A stretch of DNA of 64,000 bases from a virus (lineage: Duplodnaviria > Caudoviricetes): the IMG/VR virus record IMGVR_UViG_3300033069_001378, positions 1 to 64,000 of that record; one strand, 5' to 3'. The notes beneath the pieces were generated by a model, which did not search any database, was not told the origin of the DNA, and saw only the letters and a program-made list of their open reading frames with translations. Shown in pieces: positions 15,712-40,103 of the stretch (position 1 is the first letter of the stretch; each line of letters begins with the position of its first letter). The translations under genes and the position numbers were made by a program.

Positions 15712-16008
15712 ATGAATAAAAGCAAACCAGTCGATATTCGTCATCTAATAAGAGAAATCCTTAAGGAGCAACTAGGTGATCTAGATATCCCTACTTCTAC
15801 TCCCTCTTCTACTGTACTTAAGGTTCCACAGTTATCAGATATTGGGAACGACGAAGAGCAACAACAACAACAAGAACCTACAAGTTTTGATAATGAGCAA
15901 GACCCAACGGACGATGCAGAACAAATGTCAATCGAACAGATTGCAAGAACCATTGAAGACACAGTAGAAACAGAAGGCAATACAGAGAATGAGGAGCCAC
16001 AACAATGA
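15712..16008 (+). CDS. acidic protein with IRHLIREILKE leader motif (putative internal head protein)
   Basis: TATTTA at 15661; leader motif; acidic, Gln-rich body; start 15703 or 15712. Confidence 0.6.
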   Translation: MNKSKPVDIRHLIREILKEQLGDLDIPTSTPSSTVLKVPQLSDIGNDEEQQQQQEPTSFDNEQDPTDDAEQMSIEQIARTIEDTVETEGNTENEEPQQ

Positions 16009-16922
16009 GTGCTAACACAATTGGTGCAGACGTTAACGAAATCTTAACAGGCTTCTATCTCGTTGGAGGTAAGTGGTCTTCTTTTGGAAATGGTGCCGAA
16101 GCTAAGGCTCAACTTGTAGCAAGAAAAGCTCAACTTGCTCCAAACGAATATGTGGACCAAGAGGGCAGAGCAAAGGCAATGGCAAACTCTGTTCTAGCTT
16201 GGGCAGCTTCCAATGGATATGCTGGCAAGGTTGTCAAAGCTTGGTGGACAGCACGTCCCGGTGTTCTTTCAGCAGCCTATGGTCAGCCTGTAGATAGCAG
16301 AATGAACCCAACAGATATCTTACTTCAGTTCTCCGATGGACAATTCCTCGGTATTTCAGCCAAATCCACAAAGAGTTCTGGCGATATTGGATTCAAGAAT
16401 CCAGGCGCAGGAACCGTTTCCAAGGCACTTGGAATTGATCTCGACTCTTTGTTCAAGACAAGAACCGCTGTTGTCATCAAGAAGTTGAAGCTTCCAATTC
16501 CTATGCAGGAGAGAAAAGCTTATATCCGTTCCAAGCCAAAGGTACAACAGCAGACCGTCTTGGTTGGACAACAGATTCTTGCTTCCATGAGAGACAAGAT
16601 GTTTGAGAAGCTTTCAACAATGAAGCCAAAAGATTTGAGAGCTTACATTCTCAAGTATTGGATGGACGCAGACGTAATCGAGCCAAGATACATCAAGGTA
16701 ACTGGTAACGGAAAGAACGGAGCCTACGCTGCCTCTGTCATGGACCCTCTTAACAACGAGAAGCTTCAAGCTCTATCCAGCCCAAAGCTTACCGTCATGA
16801 AGGTTGGTGCTGACTCTGTTGGAATCATTGGTGGCAATAACAAGAAGATCATGAAGATGCGCTTCAAGTACGAATCCGAGAAGGTTGCTTCTTCCCTCAA
16901 GCTAAGCGGAGATCCTTGGTGA
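16005..16922 (+). CDS. putative PD-(D/E)XK restriction-like endonuclease
   Basis: DVNEIL...PTDILLQFSDGQFLGISAK. Confidence 0.6.
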   Translation: MSANTIGADVNEILTGFYLVGGKWSSFGNGAEAKAQLVARKAQLAPNEYVDQEGRAKAMANSVLAWAASNGYAGKVVKAWWTARPGVLSAAYGQPVDSRMNPTDILLQFSDGQFLGISAKSTKSSGDIGFKNPGAGTVSKALGIDLDSLFKTRTAVVIKKLKLPIPMQERKAYIRSKPKVQQQTVLVGQQILASMRDKMFEKLSTMKPKDLRAYILKYWMDADVIEPRYIKVTGNGKNGAYAASVMDPLNNEKLQALSSPKLTVMKVGADSVGIIGGNNKKIMKMRFKYESEKVASSLKLSGDPW

Positions 16923-16924
16923 CA

Positions 16925-17716
16925 ATGACAACAACAAATACTACAACAACAAAAGGTTTTGGCTTCTATCTTAGAAGACTTCCTCCTCATACCGTGAAGA
17001 ACGGTCAAGTCTTAATCACAAGACTCAAGGCAGCAAAAGCTACTTGGGTTTCTTTAATGGTTGAAGCCGAAGATGGCTATGTGTCTCCAAGATCAAATAT
17101 AAAAGATTATGGAGACGATCTTGTCTTGGCAGGGTTCGACGTATGGGTTTGGACATTCCCTGGCAGCCAGAGGGCAGCTAGCGTCCAGCAAAGCGAAGCT
17201 GCTGCCATCCTTGCTGTGGACTACTGCAAGATGGTCCGAGGCAAGGGAGTCATGCTTGATATAGAAAAGGCTTATCGTGGCAAGAAGGAATCTCTTAATG
17301 CCCTTGTAGATAAGACCATTTCTCTTGCAAAAAACAACAATAGCCAGCAACAATCTCTTTCTGTTGGCTTTGTCTCTTACCCATTGCCAACTCTTGCCAA
17401 AGACATTGACTGGACTTGTTTGAAGAAGTGTGACTTTGGTTCTCCAATGCTCTATGACACTTCAAAGACAAAAGAACTTGTTGACAGGTCGATGAAAGAA
17501 TACACCAAGTACAATAAGGTTTGGATTCCAAGTCTTGCAACTTATGATACACAAGCCCCAGGAACCGAAGAAGTTCAGCTTAAAGGTGACTTGGATAGAG
17601 TGTTTGAAGGTAACGGAGACAAGGGCATAAAAGCTGCTATATTCTGGTCTGAGTCAACAACTTCTGACAAAGAACGTAAAGTTATTGCCGACTATTCTGA
17701 TTTGTTGTTCATTTAG
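16925..17716 (+). CDS. putative GH25-like TIM-barrel glycoside hydrolase
   Basis: GFDVWVWTF, GVMLDIE (DxE), SPMLY, IFWS. Confidence 0.5.
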   Translation: MTTTNTTTTKGFGFYLRRLPPHTVKNGQVLITRLKAAKATWVSLMVEAEDGYVSPRSNIKDYGDDLVLAGFDVWVWTFPGSQRAASVQQSEAAAILAVDYCKMVRGKGVMLDIEKAYRGKKESLNALVDKTISLAKNNNSQQQSLSVGFVSYPLPTLAKDIDWTCLKKCDFGSPMLYDTSKTKELVDRSMKEYTKYNKVWIPSLATYDTQAPGTEEVQLKGDLDRVFEGNGDKGIKAAIFWSESTTSDKERKVIADYSDLLFI

Positions 17717-17740
17717 TAATATTTAGAAAAGATTAGTTAT

Positions 17741-18262
17741 ATGGCAATAGATTTGGATATTGATGTGGGAGACATTGTTCTAACTGGAAAGTTCAAGAAC
17801 AAGAGAACCGTTGTGAAGAAGATTGGAAGAGACAAAGAGCTTAACCAACCAACGGTTAACGATAAGAACTTGCTCAATATGCGAATCGAAAAAGATTTAC
17901 CGATAGACAAGCAGTCAAAGAAGACAAGAGAAAAGGAACCAAACACAGTGAAAAAGCTAACAACTGAAGAACTCAAGCAAATGATAAGAGAACAAATGCA
18001 TCCTAGAACGGGAAGACCAGATGAAGTTAAAATACTGCAAAAGCTTGGGTTTGAATTTGCAAAATATGGTGGAACTTCGTGGACCAAAGCTTTACCTAGA
18101 CCCTGGATGGGGGACATATGGATTGTTTTTGATCAAGAAAAAGATATGTGGAGTTTATCGGTTGGTGGTTATGAAGATTCTGTTTTAGAAATAAAAGATG
18201 TTTCTTTAAGAACTCTTTTGAGTATGTACAATAAATTAATTACTGATATCACAATTGGATGA
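17741..18262 (+). CDS. late protein with internal KLTTEELKQMIRE motif
   Basis: TATTTA at 17720; N-domain DIDVGDIVLTGKFKNKRTVVK. Confidence 0.7.
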   Translation: MAIDLDIDVGDIVLTGKFKNKRTVVKKIGRDKELNQPTVNDKNLLNMRIEKDLPIDKQSKKTREKEPNTVKKLTTEELKQMIREQMHPRTGRPDEVKILQKLGFEFAKYGGTSWTKALPRPWMGDIWIVFDQEKDMWSLSVGGYEDSVLEIKDVSLRTLLSMYNKLITDITIG

Positions 18263-18274
18263 AAGAAGCTTAAT

Positions 18275-18832
18275 ATGAAAATCACACAATCACAACTCAA
18301 GACTCTGTTAAGAGAAGCCTTGAAGCTCAAAGAGCAAGATAGCAACGGTACTGCACTTAGCAGTCCAATCACTTCAATGGAAGAATCTCCTGCGACTGCC
18401 TCCGGCATGGGTGGAGACGTATCGGAAGTTGAAGCAGAAGTTTGGGGAGGAAACTCACCAAGAGCCGATCGCATATTTGTCAACTTTGTACTTCCAAAAC
18501 ATGAGATTGACAACATGACCACAGAAGGTCTTGAGCAACTCTGCATCGAAAAGTTCTATGAAGATAATGGTTACGGAGACGATCCTTTCTGCAATTCTCT
18601 TACCGTTGACGGTGTAGACGTTCAAGACTTCAAAGATCAAATGCATCTCTATCAAGAAGAGTTGTATGAAGAAGTGACACCAGAACAAAAAGAAGCTGCT
18701 GCAAGAGAACTCATTCAAGATTACAAAAGAGCTAGAGCTGCTCGTTCAGAACGTGATATCAGAGTAATCTTTAGCAGAGCAAAGATGTATGGAATAGACC
18801 CAGGCTGGATCAAACTTAACGCAGGATACTGA
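18275..18832 (+). CDS. protein with MKITQSQLKTLLRE leader (putative internal head protein)
   Basis: shared leader motif. Confidence 0.7.
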   Translation: MKITQSQLKTLLREALKLKEQDSNGTALSSPITSMEESPATASGMGGDVSEVEAEVWGGNSPRADRIFVNFVLPKHEIDNMTTEGLEQLCIEKFYEDNGYGDDPFCNSLTVDGVDVQDFKDQMHLYQEELYEEVTPEQKEAAARELIQDYKRARAARSERDIRVIFSRAKMYGIDPGWIKLNAGY

Positions 18833-18833
18833 T

Positions 18834-19166
18834 ATGAGAAAAATCACCAAATCACAGATTAAGCAAATCATCAAAGAGTTTTTGCCACCAAAATCAACGT
18901 CTGCTCCTCGTCCAAGACCAACCAAGTCTCCAAGAGAAGCAATCAAGGACATTATGATCAGTCACATGATTTATCGTCATGATCATGGCACTCCACTGTC
19001 TTACTGGAATGCAAGCGAACTCATTGCAGACCTTGAAAGCGAATTGAAACTAAGCGAACAAGATTGGCTTGAGCAAGCAGAACAAAACAATCCAAGAGCA
19101 ATCAGAGACTTGTTCAATGAAGCTTTGTTGCAAGCCCAAGAAGAAGTTGATGCAGCTTGGGAGTGA
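18834..19166 (+). CDS. protein with MRKITKSQIKQIIKE leader (putative internal head protein)
   Basis: shared leader motif. Confidence 0.7.
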   Translation: MRKITKSQIKQIIKEFLPPKSTSAPRPRPTKSPREAIKDIMISHMIYRHDHGTPLSYWNASELIADLESELKLSEQDWLEQAEQNNPRAIRDLFNEALLQAQEEVDAAWE

Positions 19167-19169
19167 GAC

Positions 19170-20012
19170 TCAGTATCCCTTTGTGATAAACAACTCGATC
19201 TTCTTCTTGTTGTTTCCCTTGGACATTGAGTAACCGACTTCCACTTCGTTTATCTTGAAGCCGTCTTCTTCTTTAAACAACGCACGTATCTGCTCATTGT
19301 CGTTATAGGTAATGAGCAGTTTGTGTTTTTTGCTCTTCTTACAGTCTTCTGCAAACTTCACATGGTCAAAGCCTTTGTGCATCGAACCTCTGTTCCCATA
19401 GAGGTTGTCTGATTTTATATCGTATGGAGGATCGAGGAAGATAAAAACATCTTCACCATCTTCAAACAATAGGTCTTCATAGCTGGCAGAACGAATCTGA
19501 CAGTTTTTCAAAGTCTTGCCTACGTCTTTGATTGCGTTGATATGGTTCTCTTTGAACCTTCCATCATAAGAACCCTGAGAGTATCCACCACTCAATCCAA
19601 GTCCACTGAACGTGATTCTGTTCTGAATGAAGTAAGCCGCTGCTCTCTCAAGCAATGATGAGTCTTTATTGCCATCCTTCTTGAGAGTCTTTGCTGACTC
19701 GATGTAGAGCTTGGTCCCTGTCTTTGCTATAACCTTTTGCTTATTGATCTCGTCAACAAGGGTGTCTGGACAGCACTGGACGTGCTGCCAGAAATTGTAA
19801 AGCAAATAGAAATTATCTGATGCCTTCTTGATGACCGTGCTTGGTTGAGTCTGACAGACGTGAAGAAGATAGGAAGCTCCACCAAGAAAAGGCTCCCGAT
19901 ACTCTTTGTAAGCAGCAGGAGCCAATCGATCAATTTCTTTAACAAGCTTTGACTTGCCGCCAGGATATCTAAGTGGACTTTTCGTCTGTGTTTGTTTTTT
20001 CTTCATTATCAT
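19170..20012 (-). CDS. Dam-like (D12 class) DNA adenine methyltransferase
   Basis: SPLRYPGGKS, YREPFLGG, FLDPPY, LITYND. Confidence 0.92.
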   Translation of the reverse strand: MIMKKKQTQTKSPLRYPGGKSKLVKEIDRLAPAAYKEYREPFLGGASYLLHVCQTQPSTVIKKASDNFYLLYNFWQHVQCCPDTLVDEINKQKVIAKTGTKLYIESAKTLKKDGNKDSSLLERAAAYFIQNRITFSGLGLSGGYSQGSYDGRFKENHINAIKDVGKTLKNCQIRSASYEDLLFEDGEDVFIFLDPPYDIKSDNLYGNRGSMHKGFDHVKFAEDCKKSKKHKLLITYNDNEQIRALFKEEDGFKINEVEVGYSMSKGNNKKKIELFITKGY

Positions 20013-20184
20013 CTTTTTTCATTGGATAGCCGTTTTTTGAAACAGTGAAATCAAAACTGATGAATTGTACTGGTATCTTCAAGGCAAGCAACAGTTGCTC
20101 TTGAAAGAAAGCCAAATCTCTCTGTTCTTCAAAGAATGGAAGCTCTGGACGATCTGGATTGTATTTGTACTTTTTATTACTCAT
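19969..20184 (-). CDS. small hypothetical protein
   Basis: MSNKKYKY...DLAFFQEQLLLALKIP; fills the gap between genes. Confidence 0.5.
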   Translation of the reverse strand: MSNKKYKYNPDRPELPFFEEQRDLAFFQEQLLLALKIPVQFISFDFTVSKNGYPMKKDDNEEKTNTDEKST

Positions 20185-21772: not shown

Positions 21773-21813
21773 CTCCTATCTTTCTATTTGTGTAATTTCT
21801 ATATTATAGAAGA

Positions 21814-22092
21814 CTACTTCTTTTTTGTATTTCTTGGCGCCTTTTGTTTCTCTTTTGAAGAAGAAGCTTCACCACTGTCCTTGTCAACATTTCCGCTACA
21901 TGCGGCAGCAGCTTTCTTGTTCTTGAAGTGAGCTTCGTGAGCTGCCATGGTAGCAAGATTTCTATCAAGGATCTCTTTCTCGTTGGCATCATGACAAGTC
22001 TTGTCACACCAAAAGAAGTAATCATCAAGGTTGTTCTTCTTGCCAATGTATTTTTCACAATGACGACAATGCATAATTTCGGCTGTGCTCAT
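21814..22092 (-). CDS. small zinc-ribbon-like protein
   Basis: CRHC...CDKTC. Confidence 0.6.
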   Translation of the reverse strand: MSTAEIMHCRHCEKYIGKKNNLDDYFFWCDKTCHDANEKEILDRNLATMAAHEAHFKNKKAAAACSGNVDKDSGEASSSKEKQKAPRNTKKK

Positions 22093-22553: not shown

Positions 22554-22565
22554 AACTGCTCTTTT

Positions 22566-23916: not shown

Positions 23917-23932
23917 AATATCTTTTTCCTAA

Positions 23933-24545: not shown

Positions 24546-24550
24546 TTATG

Positions 24551-24799: not shown

Positions 24800-24802
24800 G
24801 TT

Positions 24803-28815: not shown

Positions 28816-29931
28816 TCAATATTCGTCAGAAAATCGATCATCATCGACAGAAACTTCCATCAAAGTTCCATTCAGAACCAGTTGGATCAAAGCAGGTACA
28901 GCAGAACTCCAGTCAAGCTTGTTCGAAAGCATTGGCTTCGCTCCAGCGGCACGATTGACAGCAACCGTGATATGAGGCACGTTGTTAGAGCTTTGAATCT
29001 CTTGACGAGGAAGGTTAACCCCAACAGCAGCAACAAGGCTATCCTGTGCAATGTTTGTGATATGGATAGGGAAGGTCTGTCCAATCAAAGACCGATCTCC
29101 CTTGAACTTACCCAAGTTGATTGTAACGTGGTGTGCAAGGATCTCCCAACCATTCGCAAACGTATCAACATCATCCTTGACAAAGTTGACGAGCTTGTTG
29201 TGGTCAGCACGAGACAACACAAGACCCGTGTAAGAAACACTGTTCTTACCCGGACCCGGAGTTGCAGTTAGAACCGATGGAGAAGAGGAGGATTGCTCAG
29301 CAAGCGTTGGATTCATAACAAGATTCTCAATCGTCTTTTGAAGCTCTTCAAGTGCCTGTGAAGCATTTGGAGTATGATAAAGGATTGCGGTACCTCCAGC
29401 AGCGTTGAAAGGATCAACGTACTTCTCTCGATCATCGATCAAGATATTCCGAGGATCTCCCTTTGCAAACTTGAACTTGTCCTTCGTGCAGTTGAACGAC
29501 TGATACATGCCAGGGAAGTTCTTCTCCATCCATAGCTGCTTCTCTTCCGCACATTGCTTGTTGGAATCCATTGGTGCCGTCAGAATATGAGGCTTCTTGC
29601 CTGTAAGGTGCATGACACCCTCAAACAAGTCCATAGCTCCAGGCAGAACGGGAAGGTTGAGAAAGAAATGCTCAGCGTTTGCCAAAGCATACTTCCTGCT
29701 GTTCACGTTATGATAAGCAACCTTCAATGCCTTCATCTTCGGATCGGTCTGTGGACCCTTAACAATGGTCTTGATTCGGTCCATCGATAGGTTTTCATAC
29801 TGCGGACCAAAGCTAGCCAGCAGTTGTGCAAAATCCTTCTTTAGCTTCTTCAAGTAGCCATCGTGATCGATTCGACCATCAAAGTCCGCAAGAACTCCGT
29901 CCATATCGAGATAGACTTCAAAATCTGTCAT
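28816..29931 (-). CDS. HAD 5'(3')-nucleotidase fused to a 2H phosphoesterase
   Basis: LDMDGVLADF, ILTAP, LIDDR; C-terminal HHVTI and PHITV (2H, tRNA-ligase CPD-like). Confidence 0.85.
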   Translation of the reverse strand: MTDFEVYLDMDGVLADFDGRIDHDGYLKKLKKDFAQLLASFGPQYENLSMDRIKTIVKGPQTDPKMKALKVAYHNVNSRKYALANAEHFFLNLPVLPGAMDLFEGVMHLTGKKPHILTAPMDSNKQCAEEKQLWMEKNFPGMYQSFNCTKDKFKFAKGDPRNILIDDREKYVDPFNAAGGTAILYHTPNASQALEELQKTIENLVMNPTLAEQSSSSPSVLTATPGPGKNSVSYTGLVLSRADHNKLVNFVKDDVDTFANGWEILAHHVTINLGKFKGDRSLIGQTFPIHITNIAQDSLVAAVGVNLPRQEIQSSNNVPHITVAVNRAAGAKPMLSNKLDWSSAVPALIQLVLNGTLMEVSVDDDRFSDEY

Positions 29932-29970
29932 TTAGTTTTCCTGTATCTTCATTTTTGGCTGTAAAGCAAG

Positions 29971-30000
29971 ATTGTAGCAGAAGATTTCTATAATGTAAAC
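29971..30000 (-). promoter_or_regulatory. early promoter (leadered)
   Basis: GTTTACA-17-TACAAT with TGc; AGGA SD downstream. Confidence 0.8.
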
Positions 30001-30003
30001 CAT

Positions 30004-33000
30004 TCAGCCGCATTTGCTGTTGCCGCAGGACGTGCATGACAAACAGCCTTCAATATAGGCAAGATCGTCAGAGCCACAGTTCTCGCACTTCTTTCTTGTC
30101 TTGGTTCCATCTTTGATGTAGCCCTTTAGAACTCTCATGAGTCCCTTACCAAGAGAGAAGAGATTGTTATCCTTACTTGCACCCTTTTCAATTTGTTCAA
30201 CAACGTATTGAACAGGAACTCCATGACGAAGAGCAAGAGACACGGTTCTTGTGAACGCACTCTCAGAAGAGTTTTCAAATACCTTGGCAAGATCCTTTAC
30301 AATGATTTGATCGTCGCCTTCACCAATCAAAACGTTATAGGTTCCATTCTTGTGAATGATTCCCTTCTTTCTTGACTTTGGTATATGGACATATTCTGAC
30401 CGACCTGCAAAGATTTCGTATGGCTTGTCTTCATAAAGACCAACGAACGCATTCCACTTTTCTCCACCAACGGTGATATGGAAAATATCGCATTCAAGAT
30501 CTGTTGGACGCTTTGGAGCATGATGTTCGACAAACTTGCCGTTATCTCGCTCCGAATCAAGTTCAACAGGGTTTGCAACAGGCTTCTCTGTTACAAGCAC
30601 GCCATCTCTGCAACCATCTCTGTAGATTGTGACACCCTTACAGCCAGTCTCCCAACCTGTCATGTAGATATCCTTAACGGTATCCACAGTTGTTTCAGCA
30701 GGAATGTTTGTTGTGTTTGAAATGCTGTGACAAATCCAACGTTGAGCAGCAGCTTGTGCTTTTACCTTAGCGACCCAATCAATGTCATTGGCTCTTGCCT
30801 TGCAGTATGGACTATCTTCAATGGATTCCTTGCCGGATACTTCCATCCACTTCTTGTATTGATGATGATAGACCTTATATTCTTGCCACTTATCTCCAAG
30901 AGCATCAACGAAGTCAACTCTTGCATCCTTGTCATTTGGATTAATCTTCTTACGACGCTTGTAAACAACTTCAAACGCAGGCTCAATTCCAGAGGTAGTT
31001 TGAGTTAGAACGCTTACAGAACCAGCAGGAGCAGTAGTTGTGAGAGCAATGTTTCTGCGACCATAGCGTTTCCAATCTTCTTTAAGGTCTGGATCGAGGT
31101 CCATGATTCTGTTAATGAAAGGATGATCCTTCTCAAGTTCGTAATCAAAAACAGGGAATGCGCCTCTTTCTCCAGCCAATTCAACGGTTGCACGATAAGC
31201 GTTAAGGGCAAGGTACTTATAGATTTCCTCTATTTGTCCAATGGATTCCTCGGAACCATAACGAATATTGAGGGCAGCAAGTGTATCACCTATTGCGGTA
31301 ACTCCAAGACCTGTTCGACGACCATCAACGGCAGACTTACGAATCTTGTTCCATAGGTTAACTTCAATCCTTTTGACGTCATCTGGCTCTGGATCTGCTT
31401 GAATCTTGGCAAGAATCTTGTCAACGCACTCAAGTTCAAGGTCAATCATATCGTCCATGAGTCTTTGTGCGAGAATAACAACCTTTCCATAAGCATCGTA
31501 GTCAAACTTTGCTTCTGGTGTGAATGGTTTCTCTACGAAAGATAGAGTGTTCACAAGCAGCAAACGACAGCTATCGTATGGGCTAAGGGTGATTTCACCA
31601 CATTGGAATACATGTATGCCACTGTATGAAGTCTCTCCCTTGTTGTTTTGTTTTTGACTTGTAACAATTGAAACTGTATGATTGTCATCAACCGTGATGT
31701 TGTACACATCATGTAGACCTTCAAGTTCAACAACAGAAACTACTTTGTGATTGTAGTTTGTTCCTGCTTCTTGTACTTCTTTCCAATTTTGGAATCCGTA
31801 TTTTGTCTTTAGTCTGTATGACACGTTTTCTTGTTTGCAAGCTTGTTCCCATTCCTTCATCAATGGTTTACGACTAAGATCAAACTTTAGTTTTGAAAAC
31901 AATTGAGCTTGCTTGATCTTTATTGAATCAAGTTTTGCCTTATATGTTTGATTTAATGTATTTGTTCTTGCTGAGTTGATATCTTTGTTATTGTTGATAT
32001 ATACCAAAGAACACGCTTGAGAGCAGAATGAAGCTTCTCTTTGTAGATGATTAATTGAAAATGTTGAGTCACAAATCTCACAAGTTTTTTCTACAAAAAC
32101 CTGACTGTCAACAATGTTAGCCACATAGCCTTGAGATAACATATTTTGCAATGTCTTGACAACTCTTGGATCGGCATCAATGTGATCGTAGCCAAGCTCA
32201 ATGGCACATAGTTTTGCCAACTCTACTGGATTAGTTGCAAGCGTTTTCCTAAAATCAGTAAAGCTAACGGGTAGCTCATTTTCAGATGCAAACAATTCCC
32301 ATTCTTTTGCACTAAAACGTCTACCAAGTGCCTTGGTTAGCTCTATGGCTTTGCTCTTGATTTGTTCATTTGTCACAGAATATGAATTGCCGTTTGCGAA
32401 ACCTTTGCAATCGTGCTCGGCGTGATATTGTTGATGCTCTTTAAATGTCATTATTTCAAGATTATCTGGACTATTGTTAAGTCCGTTATAATCCTTATGA
32501 TGCACAACAAGTCCGCCAGTGTTTGCCCAACCAGACTTTTTCGAGTTTTCATAGACACTATTCCACTTTTCTGGATTGTTGTATTGAGCAATCAAACGAT
32601 GTTCAAAAATCTTATTGGACGCTGCGTCATTTGTATTACAGTATATACGGTAATAGCTCTTTCCACCTTGTTTAACGGGCTCAATAGCTTTTGTAAATCT
32701 TGGAAGACTATCTCCAGACAGCAAGTCTCTAGCTTGCTTTCTTGTTCCATCTTTTAACAAGAACTCGTGGTTTGGAGTAACATCTAAATGCGATCCATCA
32801 TCCAGCAACACTCTAACAAGCTTTTGATTATAACCAGTTACTCTTGGATTGCGACCCATCTTAATTTCAACCAAACCAGTAGAAGGATTCAAAGAGTACA
32901 CAGGTACGTCTTTTCCTTCATCTGCTAGTTGTTTAATGGAAACTGCATTTCTTCCGTCTGCAACAGCAATAAGTGTGTTTGCTTCAAAACAAGGATTTGT

Positions 33001-33894
33001 GCTAACTGTTTGGAATTGTTCGTAGATATCGGCAGGAGATTCTCTCTTGACCGTATCCCAAAACAACAATCCTGGCTCTGCACTGGAATGAGCGGACTCA
33101 ATGATTTGATCCCAAATGTTCTTTGCGTCAATCAAATCCGATACTTGTGGATTCTCTTTCTCATCAACAGGGAATCTAACTTGGTACTTCTCTCCACTCT
33201 TAACGGCATTCATGAACTCATCGGAAAGTCTTATGGAAATGTTTGCTCCGGTAACTTTCTTGAGATCTCTTTTGATGTTAATGAAGGTTTCAATCTCAGG
33301 ATGATGCACCGAAATAGAAAGCATCAAAGCTCCTCTACGACCACCTTGAGCAACTTCTCTACATGTATTTGAAAACCTTTCCATGAAGATTCCGATGCCA
33401 TCGGTAGTCTTGGCTGCATTGTTGGTTGCGATGCCTCTAGGACGTATTGTAGAGATATCAAAACCCACTCCACCACGACGCTTCATTAGCTGTGCTTCTT
33501 CTTGGTCTGTCTTAAGAAGACCACCATAGGAATCATATGGAGACTCAATAACGAAACAGTTAGAAAGACTCACTGTTTGATAAGGATTTCCAATGCCTGC
33601 CATTGGAGAACCCTGCGGAACAATGTACTTGAAGCCCTTGAATGATTCGTATATCTCATTCTCAGAACGTGGTCTTGGATATTTCTGTTCAATTCTGGCA
33701 AACTCTTTTGCCATTCTCTTGTGCATCTCATCAGGAGTTTCTTCAAGAATATCTCCTTCTGGAGTTGTTAATGCATACTTTCCAAGAAATACTTGTGCCG
33801 CAAGTTCGTCTCCTACAAAATATTCTTTTGACTTCTTAAGAGCTTCTTGATAGTGCTCTTTCTTTGTGTCTACATTGTTTTCCGCTAAACCCAT
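30004..33894 (-). CDS. nrdJ: class II (B12-dependent) ribonucleotide reductase with intein
   Basis: LSNCFV, GGRRGALM, TNP/CGE, RRTGLG, APAGS, SGIEP, KGVTIYRDG, C-terminal CENC..CTSC. Confidence 0.93.
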   Translation of the reverse strand: MGLAENNVDTKKEHYQEALKKSKEYFVGDELAAQVFLGKYALTTPEGDILEETPDEMHKRMAKEFARIEQKYPRPRSENEIYESFKGFKYIVPQGSPMAGIGNPYQTVSLSNCFVIESPYDSYGGLLKTDQEEAQLMKRRGGVGFDISTIRPRGIATNNAAKTTDGIGIFMERFSNTCREVAQGGRRGALMLSISVHHPEIETFINIKRDLKKVTGANISIRLSDEFMNAVKSGEKYQVRFPVDEKENPQVSDLIDAKNIWDQIIESAHSSAEPGLLFWDTVKRESPADIYEQFQTVSTNPCFEANTLIAVADGRNAVSIKQLADEGKDVPVYSLNPSTGLVEIKMGRNPRVTGYNQKLVRVLLDDGSHLDVTPNHEFLLKDGTRKQARDLLSGDSLPRFTKAIEPVKQGGKSYYRIYCNTNDAASNKIFEHRLIAQYNNPEKWNSVYENSKKSGWANTGGLVVHHKDYNGLNNSPDNLEIMTFKEHQQYHAEHDCKGFANGNSYSVTNEQIKSKAIELTKALGRRFSAKEWELFASENELPVSFTDFRKTLATNPVELAKLCAIELGYDHIDADPRVVKTLQNMLSQGYVANIVDSQVFVEKTCEICDSTFSINHLQREASFCSQACSLVYINNNKDINSARTNTLNQTYKAKLDSIKIKQAQLFSKLKFDLSRKPLMKEWEQACKQENVSYRLKTKYGFQNWKEVQEAGTNYNHKVVSVVELEGLHDVYNITVDDNHTVSIVTSQKQNNKGETSYSGIHVFQCGEITLSPYDSCRLLLVNTLSFVEKPFTPEAKFDYDAYGKVVILAQRLMDDMIDLELECVDKILAKIQADPEPDDVKRIEVNLWNKIRKSAVDGRRTGLGVTAIGDTLAALNIRYGSEESIGQIEEIYKYLALNAYRATVELAGERGAFPVFDYELEKDHPFINRIMDLDPDLKEDWKRYGRRNIALTTTAPAGSVSVLTQTTSGIEPAFEVVYKRRKKINPNDKDARVDFVDALGDKWQEYKVYHHQYKKWMEVSGKESIEDSPYCKARANDIDWVAKVKAQAAAQRWICHSISNTTNIPAETTVDTVKDIYMTGWETGCKGVTIYRDGCRDGVLVTEKPVANPVELDSERDNGKFVEHHAPKRPTDLECDIFHITVGGEKWNAFVGLYEDKPYEIFAGRSEYVHIPKSRKKGIIHKNGTYNVLIGEGDDQIIVKDLAKVFENSSESAFTRTVSLALRHGVPVQYVVEQIEKGASKDNNLFSLGKGLMRVLKGYIKDGTKTRKKCENCGSDDLAYIEGCLSCTSCGNSKCG
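31603..32991 (-). mobile_element. intein (463 aa) with HNH endonuclease, C-terminal Gln
   Basis: TNP|CFEANTLIAVADG...VTPNHEF...HHKDYNGLNNSPDNL...DVYNITVDDNH...GIHVFQ|CGE. Confidence 0.92.
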
Positions 33895-33943
33895 GGTAAG
33901 TACCTCTAATATGTGGTGTTATGTTAATCTTCTGTTGTATTTT

Positions 33944-35425
33944 TTATTGAATGATACCGTTGCTGCCAGAGGATTGCATATATTTTCTTGCGTTCATCCT
34001 TCTGATTGTGTCCAACGATTGCTCTTCTTCTTGTGTTTGTAAATCTATATCTCGGCTTGACATTTCTTCTTCTGTCAATACTCTTATTCTTGATCTTGCT
34101 GTATCTATGTGTCCGTTGAAGGTTAGACCGTCTCTACCTGCACGGTTCTTTGCAATGTGTAGAGTGCAGTATCCGCTTGATTTGATCTTTGTTGGTCTTG
34201 CAATACCAAGAATAAAGTCTGCAACGTGTGCTTGTGCAAATGCTTCTGCAAGATTTGTCATATCAATGATCTCTGCGTTTGCACCTTCTTTATTTGCTTG
34301 AAGGGCAGTCCATACAGGAACGTCGAGTTCTCCAGCGAATCCTCTTAGTTCTTCGCAGATTTTCTTCAACTCAAGGCGAAGCAACTCATAGCGTTCGGTT
34401 GAACGCATGATACCTGCATAGTCAACGATAACCAAATCTGGTCTGAAGTTCTGTGAAGCAAGCTTATCCAAATGGGAACGTAACGTAGACACGGTAGCTC
34501 CTCCGGTTGGATAATACTTGATACGAAGCTTACCAAGTGAATCTTGGTTGTCCTTGTAGAACTTTGAGATAAGGTCTTGATATTGGTAACAATCTGAGGA
34601 GTTGATATCCATAAGATGCGAGTCGAAACGAATACCTGTCATTCTCTCGTTGAGTTCCAAGGTGTAGTAAACAACGTTCTTGCCCTGCAAGAGAGCTTGC
34701 GAACCCATGTGAACGAGAGCATGTGACTTACCTACACCAGAGGCAGCAACAATGAAACCAAGCTCACCAGCACCAAGACCTCCGTTAAGGATTTCTCTTT
34801 GGTCGAGCTCTTTGATTCCTGTTGCAATGGTTCTGCGATAGGTTTCTGAGTATCTTGCAGCAATATCTTCAAACAAGTCAAGACCAACGGTGTTTTCATT
34901 ACCAGCGGAAGCTGCCTTCTTAACTTCATCAAAGATCTTGTCTTGATCTTCAAGCTTATCGGAATTTGCCAACTCAACACAACGAATCAATGCCTTATGG
35001 ATAGCAGAACGCTTGCAGAACTTAAGAGCTTGGTCTTTAACATAAGGAAGGTCTGTCAAGTCCTTGTCTGACTTGATTCTTCCAAGGAAGAACTCTTTGA
35101 CCTGATCCTTTAGAATGGAGTCAGCACCAGTCTCTTTTAGATTCTTGGCAATGATTTGAGATAATAGTTCAGCAGTTGGAAACTCTTTGTACTTCGTGTA
35201 ATAGCGTGTGTATTCGCTTGTGATAAGCTTTAGGTACGCATATTGGAAATATTCTACCTCAAGAACTTCGCAGAACTGTGATGCCCACATTCTGTCTACT
35301 ATCATGGCTTGGACAATCTTCTCTTGGAAGGATTTGTCAAATGAGAACTTCTTTGTTGTTGCTGCCGTGTCGTTCGTGTTTGTTGTTGATGATGATGATG
35401 TTTGTGTTATTGATGATGTTGTCAT
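33944..35425 (-). CDS. DnaB/gp41-like replicative helicase
   Basis: AASGVGKS, YTLEL, IVDYA, WTALQANKEG, AKNRAG. Confidence 0.92.
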   Translation of the reverse strand: MTTSSITQTSSSSTTNTNDTAATTKKFSFDKSFQEKIVQAMIVDRMWASQFCEVLEVEYFQYAYLKLITSEYTRYYTKYKEFPTAELLSQIIAKNLKETGADSILKDQVKEFFLGRIKSDKDLTDLPYVKDQALKFCKRSAIHKALIRCVELANSDKLEDQDKIFDEVKKAASAGNENTVGLDLFEDIAARYSETYRRTIATGIKELDQREILNGGLGAGELGFIVAASGVGKSHALVHMGSQALLQGKNVVYYTLELNERMTGIRFDSHLMDINSSDCYQYQDLISKFYKDNQDSLGKLRIKYYPTGGATVSTLRSHLDKLASQNFRPDLVIVDYAGIMRSTERYELLRLELKKICEELRGFAGELDVPVWTALQANKEGANAEIIDMTNLAEAFAQAHVADFILGIARPTKIKSSGYCTLHIAKNRAGRDGLTFNGHIDTARSRIRVLTEEEMSSRDIDLQTQEEEQSLDTIRRMNARKYMQSSGSNGIIQ

Positions 35426-35467
35426 GAAATTACCTATAATCTACTGCTGTTCTCTATGCTGTTGTGA

Positions 35468-35497
35468 ACCCTAACACGACGACAAAAATCTGTAAAC
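35468..35497 (-). promoter_or_regulatory. weak early-type promoter for helicase
   Basis: GTTTACA-17-TAGGGT with TG extension. Confidence 0.5.
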
Positions 35498-35674
35498 CAA
35501 CTCTTGTTAGGAATGACTTACAGACTCATGGGGTTGAGATAAAGAGTACGCTCAAAGAGAAACTTCTGTGAAAAAGTTTATCTAAATTCACTTTTCTTGA
35601 AATGAAGAATCTGCCTATTTTATAGGCAGAAAATAATGAAAAAAATGTTATGAAAAACTGTCTACAAGATCTAA

Positions 35675-36817
35675 TTAGCTCGTTGCTGTGGCACCAAGTT
35701 GTTGAAGCTCAAGAGCGAAACGATTGATATCGAAATCGAAGTTGATTCCTTCTTGGACCAAGAACTTCATAAGAGCAAGCTGATCTCTGTGTGGTGTGTA
35801 GTTCTCAACAATGTTGTCAATCTTTTGGATTTGGTCCCAACTCATGATGGAACTGTTCAAATACATAAGCTTCCAGTTTCTCTTAACGATTTCTTCACAA
35901 GAAAGAACGTCTTTGTAGATTCTTGGTGCCTTCTTCTTCTTTACCTTAACCTCTACAATTGCCTTCTTCTTGTTGACCTTGCGCTCTTCGACCATAAGGA
36001 AATCTTTGTTGGTCTGACACTCGGTCATGATATCGTCAATGGTTAGGTCCACATCTTGTCGTTTAAGGCTCGTGAAGCGCCCTGCAAGGCTCTTGAACCC
36101 TACGCCCGGTACGCCTGGTATGTTGTCGCTGTCATCGCCTACAATGGCTTTTGCGAGGCAGTAATTGCGTGCCGAGATATCATAGGTTTCCAAAACGGTC
36201 TTATGGTCAATGAATGCTTTCTTTGCTGGATCAAAGATGACAACGTTTGGATCGTCGAGTAACTGATAATAGTCCTTGTCTGTTGAGACAATGACCTTGC
36301 GGTAGTTCTCATAAGGGGTCTTCTTACCATACTTCTCCTTTGCGAGATAACCGATAATGTCATCGCCTTCAACGTCCTTAACAAATACCTGGCACACAGG
36401 CATGGTCTTAAGGATTCCCGTTAGAAGAACAAGCTGCTTTACCTTTGTGTCTTCATCATACTTCAAGCCATCCTTGATTGACTTTGAAGTTGAAGTATGC
36501 TTCATGGTGCTTGCCAAGTCCTTCATCTTCATTCGGTTGGCTTTATAGCCTGGGAATATGTGCTTTCTTCTTGGTGAGCCTCCACCCATTTCAAAAGCTG
36601 TTATTACCTTAACGGGTCTTGTTAGGTTGACAACCATTCTAAGGCTCTTGAGGAATCCTACGGTGCCTCCGATTGGTTCTGACTTGTTGTTTATGGACTC
36701 GTTGACCATATAGCTTCGAATGAACATGTTCATTGAATCGACAAGCAATATGGTTTTCTGTCCGTTGAGATTTACATTTGGTTCTGGAATTGTTGTTTTT
36801 GACAAAGTATTGATCAT
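35675..36817 (-). CDS. 5'-3' exonuclease / flap endonuclease (Pol I N-terminal, T4 RNase H-like)
   Basis: LLVDSMN, YKANR, EGDDIIG, STDKDYYQL, GDDSDNIPGVPGVG. Confidence 0.92.
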   Translation of the reverse strand: MINTLSKTTIPEPNVNLNGQKTILLVDSMNMFIRSYMVNESINNKSEPIGGTVGFLKSLRMVVNLTRPVKVITAFEMGGGSPRRKHIFPGYKANRMKMKDLASTMKHTSTSKSIKDGLKYDEDTKVKQLVLLTGILKTMPVCQVFVKDVEGDDIIGYLAKEKYGKKTPYENYRKVIVSTDKDYYQLLDDPNVVIFDPAKKAFIDHKTVLETYDISARNYCLAKAIVGDDSDNIPGVPGVGFKSLAGRFTSLKRQDVDLTIDDIMTECQTNKDFLMVEERKVNKKKAIVEVKVKKKKAPRIYKDVLSCEEIVKRNWKLMYLNSSIMSWDQIQKIDNIVENYTPHRDQLALMKFLVQEGINFDFDINRFALELQQLGATATS

Positions 36818-36837
36818 AATAGACAAGTATAGGACAA

Positions 36838-36869
36838 AGAAAAAAGGTTGGACCGTTCAAGTCCAACCT
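36838..36869 (-). terminator. intrinsic terminator
   Basis: AGGTTGGAC/GTCCAACCT stem followed by a T-run on the minus strand. Confidence 0.75.
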
Positions 36870-36910
36870 CATTTTAATCTATATTTTTAGAGTATTTCTT
36901 ATTCTCTTTT

Positions 36911-37114
36911 TCAGTCTTCGCCAACTACCTTAACGATTACTTTCTTGTGAAGGACTGCGCCAACTAGAGCACCAACGAATGCAAGTCCTACTGCCTTGTA
37001 ATCAATGGCAGAAAGGCTTCCACCAACAACCAACGGAGCAAGAGCAGCGGAAGCTGCAACGGTAACTGGACCAACTACATGTGCCTTAACGAAACTAACG
37101 AACTTATTTGACAT
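36911..37114 (-). CDS. small two-TM protein, holin-like
   Basis: GAGGA SD, TACTTA at 37180-37185, two hydrophobic segments, basic tail. Confidence 0.5.
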   Translation of the reverse strand: MSNKFVSFVKAHVVGPVTVAASAALAPLVVGGSLSAIDYKAVGLAFVGALVGAVLHKKVIVKVVGED

Positions 37115-37204
37115 AATATCCTCTTTTACTTTCTATGCGCTTCTTACTTAAGCCATTGCTTGTTTGGAAGCGTTAAGAATAAGTATAGTCATCGAGGACA
37201 AATT

Positions 37205-37480
37205 TTAACAAGTCAAGACTGTTTGAGGATGGAACAAAGGATGGTCTATAGGAGAACAATAGGTTCGATCTAGCAATGATGGTTGATATGGTACTTGTTG
37301 CTTTTCTGTAGTAACAGGAGCAACTGGCACTGGAGGAGCTACCGTCCTGTCTGGAGTCTTCTTCTCAAAGACAAGCTTGAGATGATCCTTGATTATCTGA
37401 ACTTGTTCCTTTGAGAGTTCGGAAGCGTTTGAAAGTTCTACATATCCCTGTAGCCAATAACAAAATTGAGTCTCATCCAT
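37205..37480 (-). CDS. conserved phage hypothetical protein
   Basis: FCYWLQGYVEL...QIIKDHLKLVF.K.TP. Confidence 0.75.
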   Translation of the reverse strand: MDETQFCYWLQGYVELSNASELSKEQVQIIKDHLKLVFEKKTPDRTVAPPVPVAPVTTEKQQVPYQPSLLDRTYCSPIDHPLFHPQTVLTC

Positions 37481-37844
37481 TTAACACCGTTCTTTCTGAT
37501 TGCTGTATTCTGTCGCTTTCTCCATCTATTATGACGGCAACGACATTCTTTAAATCCATTACTATGTATGTTTCTGAATCAATAGTAAGGTTCACTTCAA
37601 ATCCTTTTCTGTATATAACAACCTCACCTGGACCGTACCATTGTGGACTGTTGCCAGTGTTTGCATAGACAACCTTACCTGCTGCCAGTGCCTCAATTCG
37701 TCCTGCTGACTTTGGAATGATTATTCCATTACTGCTCTGTTCATTCTCTTCACTTGTAGCAAGAGACTCCATATCTACAGGAAGTAGTATCAAGTTGTTT
37801 GGTGTTGGAATAGGGACTCTTTTTTTTGTTATTTTGTTAGTCAT
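37473..37844 (-). CDS. groES: GroES-like co-chaperonin
   Basis: PTPNNLIL, SSNGIIIP mobile loop, GKVVYA, GEVVIY, YIVMDLKNVVAVI. Confidence 0.75.
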   Translation of the reverse strand: MTNKITKKRVPIPTPNNLILLPVDMESLATSEENEQSSNGIIIPKSAGRIEALAAGKVVYANTGNSPQWYGPGEVVIYRKGFEVNLTIDSETYIVMDLKNVVAVIIDGESDRIQQSERTVLNG

Positions 37845-37854
37845 AAGAAGAAAC

Positions 37855-38301
37855 TCACTTTACTCCAGAGGAGCCAAAGCCTCCATCCGATCTTGTTGTA
37901 TCTACAAGCTCCTCTACTTCTACAAAGTTGAAATGCTCCACTTGTCTTGGAATAAGCTGTACTGCTCTAACTGGTCCTTCTGCTAGGATATCAGGTTTTA
38001 GGTTGTCAATCTTGATCAAAGGAACCATAACCTCACCTGTGTACTCATGGTCAATGACTCCAACGGAGTTGGCTAGAATATAGCCTGTTTTGATAAGAGA
38101 GCTTCTTGGCACCATATCAAAATACCAACCTGGGTTTGTATGCTGTACTGCAATGCCTGTTGAGTACATCTCTACCTTGCCATTTGTCTTAACAAGCTCA
38201 AGTAGGGTTAGATCAAAACCAGAATCAGACTCTCTAGCTTTGAATGGGGCAACTGCGTCAGGTCTTGTTTTCTTGAATCTTACGGTTTTTGTATCTGTCA
38301 T
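37855..38301 (-). CDS. dut: trimeric dUTPase
   Basis: DSGFDL, PRSS, GVIDHEYTGE, QLI, RSDGGFGSSG; start ATG38301. Confidence 0.93.
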   Translation of the reverse strand: MTDTKTVRFKKTRPDAVAPFKARESDSGFDLTLLELVKTNGKVEMYSTGIAVQHTNPGWYFDMVPRSSLIKTGYILANSVGVIDHEYTGEVMVPLIKIDNLKPDILAEGPVRAVQLIPRQVEHFNFVEVEELVDTTRSDGGFGSSGVK

Positions 38302-38371
38302 TTCGGTTTCCTTTGAATATTTATGTTCCATCTAGACTATCACAAAGAAGAATAAAGGTATAGGAAACACT

Positions 38372-39172
38372 ATGTCATCGACCAACAAAAAACAACAAAA
38401 GAAGGTCTTATCAGCAAAAGACCAAATCAAATTGATAATCAAAGAACACATAGACAACCTAGAAGATCCAAACACCATCATATCTTCTGGCGCGGAAGGA
38501 CCAATCGATACCACACAAGAGCGTGAGATTCTAAAAGAGCTTCAGGCAGACATTGAGAATCTAGAGAACACAAACTTTGAATCCCTTTCAAAGAAAGTTG
38601 AACTCATCGCTCATCATCTCATGGACCTCGGTGATATTGGTGCAGAGAACGCAGGAAGTTCTTTGTTTCAGGTTGCAGAACTTTTGACAAAGCCAAACGC
38701 AATCATGTACAGAACACAACTATCCAACTTGATTGATGATATCATTCAAGAGCTAGACGTTTCAAATGGATCTATGGAAGAACAAGTTGGTGGAATGACA
38801 CCACCTTCATCAAGCATGGAAGAAGCACCTGGACAACCTAGACCAGCATATCGAGGCGTTGCTTACGGTATTGACATAAAGAAGCTAGTCAAAGACTTAG
38901 ATAAAGCAGCAGCTTCTTATTTCGTCAATGACATTTGGGGCGATTTTGATCAAGAAGCTATGAACATTGGATTTGAAGATCTAAAGAAGATGGCAATGGT
39001 CAGAGTAGCATTAGCTAATGCATACAATTATCAATCGGTTGATAAAGCTCTTGATGTCTACAGAAAGTGTGATACGGGATGCAGAGATAAGTTTCCTCCT
39101 CTTATGTGGAAGCTCTCAGAGAATCAATGGAAAGAATCACAGAACAAAAGACTAGGAGTGCCAGCGAGATGA
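38372..39172 (+). CDS. late protein with DQIKLIIKE leader variant and C-terminal CDTGCRDKFP domain
   Basis: TATTTA at 38318, AGGA SD; leader motif. Confidence 0.7.
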   Translation: MSSTNKKQQKKVLSAKDQIKLIIKEHIDNLEDPNTIISSGAEGPIDTTQEREILKELQADIENLENTNFESLSKKVELIAHHLMDLGDIGAENAGSSLFQVAELLTKPNAIMYRTQLSNLIDDIIQELDVSNGSMEEQVGGMTPPSSSMEEAPGQPRPAYRGVAYGIDIKKLVKDLDKAAASYFVNDIWGDFDQEAMNIGFEDLKKMAMVRVALANAYNYQSVDKALDVYRKCDTGCRDKFPPLMWKLSENQWKESQNKRLGVPAR

Positions 39173-39705
39173 AACTAACAACCAAAGTTCTTAAACAGAT
39201 CATAAGAGAACAGCTTGAAGAAGTTGGCTCTTCTGGTACAGGAGGACAAGACTTGGCTCAAAGAATCAAGGACTTCTTTGAATCTATAAGAGACGAAGCT
39301 GTTTCTCTTGGAACCGATATTAGTCTCGAAGATGTTCAAGCTATGAGTGGTGCTGCTCAAGATTTTCTTAATACCGTAGCTACAGCAAGAAGAAAAGCTC
39401 GTGCTGCTCAAAGAGATCCAGAAGCAAAAAGACTTGCTGCACAAAAAGGTCTTGCCACAAGAGCAAAGAACAAGCAAGAAGACGAGCTAGCTTCAAAGAG
39501 AAGAAGAGCAGAAGACGAAAAAGAAGAGAAGCGCATAGCTGCTGGTGGGATGCCAAAGACCATGAGCGACTATAGTGGAACTCCAGATCCACAATACTAT
39601 GAGTTCGATTATGCAGACCCTAGAAGTGGAATAAACATGTACCGTCTAAAGGGCGAAAAGGATTACTACGCTCCAGCAGAGAAGCCAATCATAAGAATGA
39701 AGTGA
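39169..39705 (+). CDS. protein with MKLTTKVLKQIIREQLEE leader (putative internal head protein)
   Basis: AGGAG SD, ATGA coupling at 39169. Confidence 0.75.
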   Translation: MKLTTKVLKQIIREQLEEVGSSGTGGQDLAQRIKDFFESIRDEAVSLGTDISLEDVQAMSGAAQDFLNTVATARRKARAAQRDPEAKRLAAQKGLATRAKNKQEDELASKRRRAEDEKEEKRIAAGGMPKTMSDYSGTPDPQYYEFDYADPRSGINMYRLKGEKDYYAPAEKPIIRMK

Positions 39706-39731
39706 AGAAAGCAAACAAGGACCAATAGAAC

Positions 39732-40103
39732 ATGAAACTAACAACCAAACAACTTAAACAGATGATAAGAGAGCAACTTGAAGAACAACCACAAAAACGT
39801 GTTGTAACAAGAAGGGACTTGATGCACGCAGGCACTCTCGACGATGCTATGCGAGACATAGAGCCTATGTTTGAAACCTATGCAGAAAATGGCGATCCAG
39901 AGTCTCAAACAATAGCAAGTGAATTGCACGATATCATAAGCAAATTATCCGATATGGTCAAAAAGCTAAGAGGAAATCCATCAGCAACACAAATAGCACA
40001 AAAAGAAAAACGTGCAGCAGCTCGAAGGGCGAAGATGACACAAAAAGATGTGCAATATTATGAAATGGGTCGTGATCGCCATCCTATGAATCAACCACGA
40101 TGA
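39732..40103 (+). CDS. protein with MKLTTKQLKQMIREQLEE leader (putative internal head protein)
   Basis: AAGGA SD; 5' 54 nt nearly identical to 39169 gene. Confidence 0.75.
   Translation: MKLTTKQLKQMIREQLEEQPQKRVVTRRDLMHAGTLDDAMRDIEPMFETYAENGDPESQTIASELHDIISKLSDMVKKLRGNPSATQIAQKEKRAAARRAKMTQKDVQYYEMGRDRHPMNQPR

Follow-up and report, generated by a model that had tools for sequence, protein, structure and literature searches.

The three or four internal proteins of bacteriophage T4 are the standard example of proteins that enter the host along with the phage genome, and two or more of them disable its defences. IPI, IPII, IPIII and Alt of T4 are made with a capsid-targeting sequence (CTS), a short N-terminal propeptide carried by small, unrelated, fast-evolving proteins and removed by the prohead protease gp21; its sequence is MKTYQEFIAE (PMC8442874). 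gp21 cleaves after L/I-X-E, and mutagenesis of the CTS showed that residues 4 and 7 serve targeting, while residues 8 and 10 serve processing (PMC9026906). The internal proteins of T-even phages are diverse and have only the CTS in common; IPI and IPIII, at least, act against the defences of the host (PMC3012670, PMC9391042). Here we describe a 64,000-base stretch of an IMG/VR viral contig (IMGVR_UViG_3300033069_001378; "the window" denotes this whole stretch), in which two gene islands encode proteins that share a short peptide, MK(I/L)TxxQLKx(L/I)I(R/K)E (the leader), joined to a variable remainder (the cargo). We read the leader as a T4-type capsid-targeting and processing sequence, by analogy and with a probability of about 0.55; the system is probably another instance of the T4 CTS and internal-protein kind.

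Like the T4 CTS, the leader ends in hydrophobic-x-Glu, has hydrophobic residues at P7, P4 and P3, occurs together with homologs of gp20, gp21 and gp23, and has some of its genes clustered in variable loci. It differs in its length (14 to 18 residues rather than 10), in its scale (68 cargo clusters for 101 proteins, with as many as about 11 genes in one array), in the dispersal of its copies over replication clusters and the structural module, and in its mostly acidic cargo. In phage P1 an N-terminal segment of DarB likewise suffices to send the protein or a reporter, for delivery, into the capsid, and the cargo is an anti-restriction protein; DarB, however, is a single, very large cargo in a stepwise Dar assembly, with neither a T4-type scaffold nor a leader on many proteins, and no protease-motif logic is described for it (PMC9024508). 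The giant phages phiKZ, 201phi2-1 and SPN3US have a gp21-related protease that likewise cuts after Glu, and the paralogous SPN3US head proteins gp53 and gp54 have identical N-termini, in a propeptide thought to target the head (PMC5694885, PMC9026906). Propeptides of the phiKZ type differ in being mostly at least 100 residues long, with S/A/G-X-E or A-X-E sites, a gp175-type protease and cargo that includes the virion RNA polymerase, whereas the leader ends in I-(R/K)-E, and the protease and capsid protein encoded with it match T4 families directly. Finally, the PeSL cassettes of T4-type phages likewise place a conserved promoter block before ORFans in variable regions, offering potential homology for shuffling (PMC2839356), but they comprise early sigma70-like promoters and a stem-loop terminator and have no conserved coding leader; the conserved unit described here takes in 14 codons under peptide-level selection.

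A conserved leader on unrelated proteins across a phage clade

The window is the reverse strand of bases 57609 to 121608 of a 182,849-base contig that is only about 48% complete by CheckV, from which its source is taken to be a jumbo phage. Judged by its sequence, the phage is a distant, uncultured relative of T4 with T4-type head genes; megablast of the region against cultured phages gave no match. We fetched 54 related viral loci by way of the RecA gene next to island 2 and scanned them in six frames with a hidden Markov model (HMM) of the leader, as the initial annotation had proposed for the genome and its relatives. Dozens of open reading frames (ORFs) start with MKITVKQLKQLIREQVEE, several per locus and nearly all on the strand opposite RecA, as they are in the window. 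With 12 bits as the minimum score, the 1.72 Mb of sequence from related loci gave 138 matches, of which 131 begin at Met; another three begin at a Val codon, and GTG is confirmed for at least one of them (window position 17948). The matches represent 104 unique proteins, whose median length is 116 amino acids (aa), in a size range similar to that of T4's internal proteins, and their consensus is MKIT(V/K)(R/K)QLK(Q/R)(L/I)I(R/K)E, extending over 14 to 18 residues. A back-translated leader pattern of about 48 bits matched 51 stretches in IMG/VR, where essentially none would be expected by chance, and a profile search of 5.8 billion proteins added 114 at E ≤ 1 (best 1e-11; 71 to 256 aa).

Beyond the leader, the cargo of 101 proteins falls into 68 clusters without detectable mutual similarity (BLASTP E < 1e-4). 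Searches of 103 leader proteins against Pfam and PHROG gave no family, bar one isolated match per library; none of the 114 database proteins has a Pfam domain, and all but two are named hypothetical. No function was recognisable for any cargo. Copy number ranges from 0 to about 11 per locus, with high turnover among close relatives. In loci found by the leader pattern alone, the leader genes sit either within the replication cluster or among the genes of the structural module, and in about 17 of 46 such loci they stand beside genes for the major capsid protein (MCP) or adaptor, the sheath or tube, or the portal.

Tandem arrays reach 9 to 11 leader genes, as at about 2957 to 9187 (minus strand) of IMGVR_UViG_3300020438_006626 (L127). 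Arrays of 5 to about 11 genes are present there and in L120, L124 and L137; their cargos are unrelated, and one is 455 aa long.

The leader ends at a predicted protease site

Column information was computed over 102 unique leader proteins. Positions 1 to 14 are highly informative, with M1, L8, I12 and E14 at close to 100% and K2, I3, T4, Q7 and K9 at 80% or more; information drops with position 15 and is down to background near position 20. An invariant Glu, with Ile at P3, thus closes the conserved unit. The pattern I/V/L12-x-E14 is present in 102 of 102 copies, and as a predicted cleavage site I12-x-E14 fits the L/I-X-E rule of gp21. Counted back from this site, P7, P4, P3 and P1 are L8, L11, I12 and E14 in the leader and Y4, F7, I8 and E10 in the T4 CTS; in the leader, these are its hydrophobic or most conserved positions. 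The hydrophobic moment of the leader is not significant alone, since 8% of shuffled sequences reach the same value. A signal peptide or membrane anchor was rejected by inspection, because the leader is highly charged.

Leader copies in the window

The initial annotation had described two plus-strand islands within minus-strand gene runs, each preceded by TAYTTA, and both points were borne out. Island 1 (15703 to 19166, six genes, its ATG at 15703) and island 2 (38372 to 40103, three genes) each interrupt a long minus-strand run, and ATATTTA stands at 15660 and 38317, with a third copy at 17719. The features of the islands are as follows (window coordinates).

15660 to 15667, plus strand: promoter-like box ATATTTAA, 43 nucleotides (nt) upstream of the island 1 ATG, no -35 element
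15703 to 16008, plus strand: gene A, 101 aa, acidic, starts DIRHLIREILKE; leader HMM E about 1
16005 to 16922, plus strand: gene B, 305 aa, leaderless; start overlaps gene A stop; no Pfam match
16916 to 17716, plus strand: gene C, 266 aa, leaderless; overlaps gene B
17719 to 17725, plus strand: ATATTTA box, 16 nt ahead of the gene D ATG
17741 to 18262, plus strand: gene D, 173 aa; internal leader VKKLTTEELKQMIREQ at residue 70, encoded from 17948; HMM E = 0.002
18275 to 18832, plus strand: gene E, 185 aa; leader MKITQSQLKTLLRE, then linker and cargo; HMM E = 0.003
18834 to 19166, plus strand: gene F, 110 aa; leader MRKITKSQIKQIIKE with a one-residue insertion after Met
38317 to 38323, plus strand: ATATTTA box, 55 nt upstream of 38372 (island 2), no -35 element
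38372 to 39172, plus strand: gene G, 266 aa; weak leader-like QIKLIIKE at residues 19 to 26; HMM 9 bits, E about 1
39169 to 39705, plus strand: gene H, 178 aa; leader MKLTTKVLKQIIREQLEE; start overlaps gene G stop (ATGA); HMM E = 6e-6
39732 to 40103, plus strand: gene I, 123 aa; leader MKLTTKQLKQMIREQLEE; HMM E = 1.3e-6

Seven island proteins had been credited with the motif, and five of these stand. With an HMM built from relatives only, genes I, H, D and E are the four best of the 292 ORFs of the contig (E from 1e-6 to 3e-3). Gene F gives the top score with the seed HMM and a weak one with the relatives-only HMM, owing to the register shift caused by its inserted residue. Genes A and G are not significant with the leader HMM (E about 1); what they share with the leader is just a tetrapeptide near the N-terminus, hydrophobic-[LI]-[RK]-E in the form of LIRE or IIKE (the latter within KDQIKLIIKE). 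In gene A it lies in a weak leader-like HLIRE at residues 15 to 19, after a basic N-terminal extension, and fits [LIVM][LI][RK]E within the first 25 residues; in gene G it is likewise near the N-terminus. By chance about 4 of the 292 proteins should have such an N-terminal tetrapeptide; nine do, five of them island proteins. Pfam and PHROG searches with the nine island proteins gave nothing usable.

In gene D, AGAGAAAAGGAA stands before the GTG at 17948 and is similar to the ribosome-binding site (RBS) region of leader genes in relatives; a possible internal start at this GTG would give a 104-aa product with the leader first. Gene D either encodes two nested products (173 aa and 104 aa) or arose from the recent fusion of a leader gene to an ORF of 69 codons upstream. 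In the closest relative (L004) the leader copy is internal too, without a start codon.

Genes H and I were said to be nearly identical over their first 54 nt and then to diverge completely. The first part was borne out (48 of 54), but the second was not: the proteins align over about 105 residues with 30% identity (E = 1.5e-7), and by their sequences genes H and I are diverged tandem paralogs. The broader claim that the proteins are unrelated beyond the motif fails for this pair and is sustained clade-wide by the 68 cargo clusters. A whole-protein homolog search with gene I recovered only gene I itself. AlphaFold2 (AF2) models of genes E and H, made from single sequences, are of low confidence and show just a separate N-terminal helix followed by a break. 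For gene E these are a helix at residues 5 to 23 and a coil of some 30 residues, the helical part at the C-terminus being confident (overall predicted local distance difference test score [pLDDT], 50); for gene H, a helix at residues 5 to 21 and a Gly/Ser break, then long helices (pLDDT, 69).

A further leader gene follows the tail tube gene at contig positions 54257 to 54844. Separately, three adjacent small genes outside the window (contig 167579 to 168845, minus strand) encode diverged leader-like N-termini, MTNRKLTAEDIRKLVKQV, MKIKEKEVRAIIREALIE and, not at the very start, KAKFLLKEMVKATI; these are not significant with the HMM, and the group may be a third, older island.

A T4-type head module on the same contig

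The contig that carries the leader genes also carries a head module in T4 gene order (contig coordinates).

27191 to 29404: portal protein, gp20 (PF07230, Portal_T4, 236 bits)
29478 to 30398: 306-aa protein, no family
30382 to 30993: gp21-type serine prohead protease (PF03420, Peptidase_S77, 91 bits)
31009 to 31524, plus strand: protein J, no family, directly after the protease gene
31664 to 32194: 176-aa protein, no family
32326 to 34428: 700-aa coiled-coil protein, scaffold-like by position
34505 to 36400: capsid protein, gp23 (PF07068, Gp23, 263 bits)

The 700-aa coiled-coil protein is presumed from its position to be the scaffold. T4 gp23 is cut after Glu65. In the capsid protein of the contig, residue 70 aligns with residue 12 of mature T4 gp23*, and MLRE64|S is the only L/I-X-E site near the projected mature N-terminus, so we infer maturation at MLRE64|S. 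This site is conserved as [LV]L[RK]E|[ST] in relatives, and the predicted capsid and leader sites therefore look alike.

Protein J has no match to a Pfam or PHROG family, and its family is conserved directly after the prohead protease gene in relatives L063 to L075, L089 and L093. Its N-terminus reads MK(L/I)xKxEF(K/R)xx(I/V)KEC..EL..EGAF (MKxxKxEFKxxVKECxxELIxEGAF) and is followed by a Gln/Pro-rich middle, an IFADTAxTTLP motif and a conserved WAxLAF near the C-terminus. In hhalign, the island leader aligns with the J N-terminus in register from Met1 (probability 76%, E = 2e-5), which suggests that the leader and protein J have a common contact in the prohead.

A promoter-like box shared with virion genes

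The 183-kb contig has just three copies of ATAYTTAA, one each ahead of the MCP gene, J and island 1. The shorter form, ATAYTTA, falls nearly always between genes and lies 20 to 110 nt upstream of the genes for J, the 176-aa protein, the scaffold-like protein, MCP, the head-tail adaptor, sheath and tube, as well as upstream of the leader gene at contig 54257 to 54844 and the island genes at 15703, 17741 and 38372. The early sigma70-like promoter of the PeSLs is not found at these boxes: a TTGACA-like -35 element is missing from 44 of the 45 TAYTTA sites that lie upstream of genes, the three island sites among them. T4 late promoters lack a -35 too. In relatives, ATATTTAA precedes 29% of leader genes and 2% of other ORFs. 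From these patterns, the islands are probably transcribed together with the virion genes from -35-less ATAYTTA promoters. As a late-specific signal, TAYTTA was upheld in part; it is -35-less and stands before virion genes, yet it also precedes genes that encode a single-stranded DNA-binding protein (SSB) and homing endonucleases.

The leader as a proposed capsid-targeting and processing sequence

The initial annotation had likened the motif to the T4 CTS, as an address tag on injected effectors. The tag itself is the best-supported reading, given the head machinery, I-x-E14, protein J and the box; that the proteins are late, packaged, cleaved, injected and act as effectors is what we infer from it. 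In the mechanism that we propose, the leader helix would bind the scaffolding core during head assembly, possibly through the same partner as protein J, and the tagged proteins would be enclosed as the shell forms. The prohead protease would then free the cargo inside the head by cutting after I-(R/K)-E14, with a possible second cut after (V/I/L)-E-E18, much as its cleavage of the capsid protein is predicted after M-L-R-E64. That the cargo might leave with the DNA at infection, as first-wave, host-specific proteins such as anti-defence factors, has less support; this role would account for its rapid turnover and for arrays of up to 9 to 11 genes. More tentatively, and on balance doubtfully, protein delivery of a plug-in kind might be common to a whole clade of T4-like jumbo phages, uncultured and from fresh water and the sea: any small protein that gained the leader of 14 residues would be loaded onto the prohead core by the contact that J uses, freed by the protease at I-(R/K)-E and carried into the host with the DNA.

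Should the capsid-targeting reading be true, the injection principle of T4 would extend to a large clade of uncultured giant phages and at a far larger scale. MKITxxQLKxLIRE at an N-terminus would be a handle for pulling candidate injected proteins from metagenomes, whose functions would become testable, and the leader would be a candidate portable packaging tag for phages of Bacteroidota-like, non-model hosts. The leader would also make [LIV]-[LI]-[RK]-E the expected specificity of a distant gp21-type protease and single out J as a candidate for binding the core. If delivery were true as well, the 100 or more unrelated cargo families would be an untapped library of first-wave anti-defence or host-takeover proteins.

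Several observations weigh against this reading. The ATAYTTA box is not virion-specific, given its place ahead of the SSB and homing-endonuclease genes, and both window islands, like many leader genes of relatives, sit in replication gene clusters. The likeness between J and the leader may be partly compositional, with a probability of just 76%, and we weight it moderately because both are Lys/Glu-rich amphipathic helices. The cleavage motif has few residues and is frequent ([LIVM][LI][RK]E, 0.58 per 1000 residues). For peptides as short as the leader, sequence homology to the T4 CTS is not demonstrable, the initial MK and the positions being what match. The leader is internal in gene D and in its closest ortholog. 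The cargo is mostly acidic (median isoelectric point, 5.0; 76 of 101 below 6), which is odd for co-packaging with DNA. No leader copy was found in a distant relative that is 93% complete and has a protease of the same family, in a search whose sensitivity is limited by its prefilter, and the exact leader is absent from the nearest cultured phages, Flavobacterium phage vB_FspM_immuto (47% MCP identity to the contig phage) and Microcystis phage Mel-JY01. Nor did the N-termini of its own J-like and neighbouring head proteins have paralogs in the 93%-complete relative, and the outcome for this relative is uninformative either way.

In culture, Flavobacterium phage vB_FspM_immuto_3-5A (L143, 5460 to 5681) encodes a 73-aa hypothetical protein, immuto35A_198, between the portal and the protease. 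It begins MKKSQIVKAVQEVLEE|MSTTG, a shorter leader-like N-terminus, and the MCP site in that phage is IVSE|A. Since the phage can be grown, immuto35A_198 is a possible experimental entry point.

Alternative explanations

Several of the same observations would suit a shared docking or oligomerisation helix that has nothing to do with the capsid and binds the replication or recombination machinery or a host hub protein, with specificity provided by the variable remainder of each protein. The hydrophobic residues of the leader (positions 1, 5, 8, 11/12, 16 and 19) have heptad-like spacing; the window islands and many of those in relatives lie between the dUTPase, exonuclease and DnaB genes and the RecA and SSB genes; acidic cargo is what many cytoplasmic phage inhibitors look like; and the leader can be internal, as in gene D. 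Such a helix leaves unexplained why conservation ends at an invariant hydrophobic-x-Glu that matches both the rule of the head protease and the predicted capsid site, and why there should be a likeness to the N-terminus of J, a box in common with virion genes and copies beside capsid and tail genes. We consider it unlikely, if the strongest of the alternatives.

The similarity to protein J, conserved and placed where a core protein would be, also brings up the idea that the leader proteins are accessories of the prohead core or scaffold, targeted there and cleaved, then degraded and expelled like the fragments of T4 gp67, gp68 and gp22, or kept as DNA-organising filler, rather than injected effectors. 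The core proteins of T4 are gp21 substrates as well (PMC9026906); the cargo has no recognisable enzymatic or inhibitor domain, and many cargos are predicted to be helical or disordered. Structural parts of a core are normally conserved and single-copy, however, whereas here there are 68 unrelated clusters at 0 to about 11 copies per locus, a pattern of turnover typical of arms-race accessory genes such as those for T-even internal proteins (PMC3012670). We consider the core-accessory explanation quite unlikely.

The near-identity of genes H and I at their 5' ends had been taken to point to cassette shuffling at the DNA level. The two genes are paralogs and so give no evidence of shuffling between unrelated genes. 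Their leader is nevertheless homogenised at synonymous sites: of the residues that the two proteins have in common, 13 of 15 in the leader use the same codon, against 8 of 30 in the cargo (Fisher p = 3e-4). Across the clade, leader codon identity is 0.64 within loci and 0.53 between loci, and codons vary at fixed amino acids (Lys AAG/AAA, Arg CGT/AGA, Ile ATC/ATT, Gln CAA/CAG, Leu CTT/CTA/CTC/TTA/TTG). As synonymous codons vary freely clade-wide, selection acts on the leader peptide, and the homogenisation in the H/I pair appears from these codons to be a local, secondary effect and not the cause of conservation. Shuffling of a DNA cassette was rejected on this ground as the general cause and kept as a local effect for the pair.

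Separately, many leader genes in relatives (L005, L009, L012, L014, L016, L043 and others) have a conserved DNA block, CAATATTTAAAGCTAACCATTAGTTCTC...AGAGAAAGGAA (about 45 nt), some 20 to 70 nt upstream. The block comprises the box, the 5' untranslated region and the RBS, is absent in that form from the contig of the window, and is a possible recombination or regulatory cassette.

A stronger version would have the conserved start be a DNA or RNA cassette (promoter, RBS and first codons) spread by recombination or gene conversion, and the peptide without a targeting role. The upstream block, with the PeSLs as a precedent (PMC2839356), and the codon identities in the H/I pair and within loci fit this idea, which is improbable all the same: amino acids stay fixed while leader synonymous sites vary clade-wide, the peptide is kept in the contig where the block is absent, hydrophobic periodicity and an invariant Glu are constraints on a peptide, and the box has no -35 of the kind that PeSL early promoters have.

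It is most improbable that a modifying enzyme recognises the leader, in the manner of ribosomally synthesized and post-translationally modified peptides, linked to radical-SAM enzymes: one N-terminal peptide on many unrelated small proteins is a signature of leader-guided modification too, but the leader has no Cys/Ser/Thr-rich core, PF04055 (radical-SAM) was not found in the contig or in leader-bearing relatives of 260 kb and 241 kb, all of them incomplete records, and its sole match, in a 320-kb record, is about 190 kb from the two weak leader matches there.

Other features of the islands and their surroundings

The two leaderless genes of island 1 gave leads from structure-based comparison. 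Gene B has an ESM Atlas feature score of 0.97 to RE_HaeIII clusters, with structural template-modeling scores of 0.69 to 0.86, and may resemble a HaeIII-family restriction endonuclease. DNA methyltransferase-like genes at 14852 to 15313 and 19170 to 20012 (both minus strand), one with an NPPY-type and one with a DPPY-type motif, flank island 1; together with gene B they may form a phage-borne restriction-modification arrangement, with the nuclease under a late-like box. Gene C scores 0.96 to 0.97 to unnamed clusters and a "GTA TIM-barrel-like" cluster and 0.88 to GH18. As a lead, it may resemble a TIM-barrel glycoside hydrolase and, co-transcribed with leader genes, could be a virion-associated wall or capsule hydrolase.

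The minus-strand neighbours of the islands are replication and nucleotide-metabolism genes rather than late ones and include those for an intein-bearing ribonucleotide reductase (RNR), a DnaB-like helicase, a 5'-3' exonuclease, RecA/UvsX, a dUTPase, a gp32-like SSB and methyltransferases. A tRNA scan of the window found none. Three very large proteins of 1116, 1040 and 1574 aa (44864 to 48214, 48561 to 51683 and 51912 to 56636, minus strand), with zero Pfam or PHROG matches, adjoin the SSB and RecA genes, and TAYTTA boxes stand ahead of two of them. The gene for the RNR large subunit (30004 to 33894, minus strand) is interrupted by an intein with an HNH endonuclease (Pfam Intein_splicing and HNH_3).

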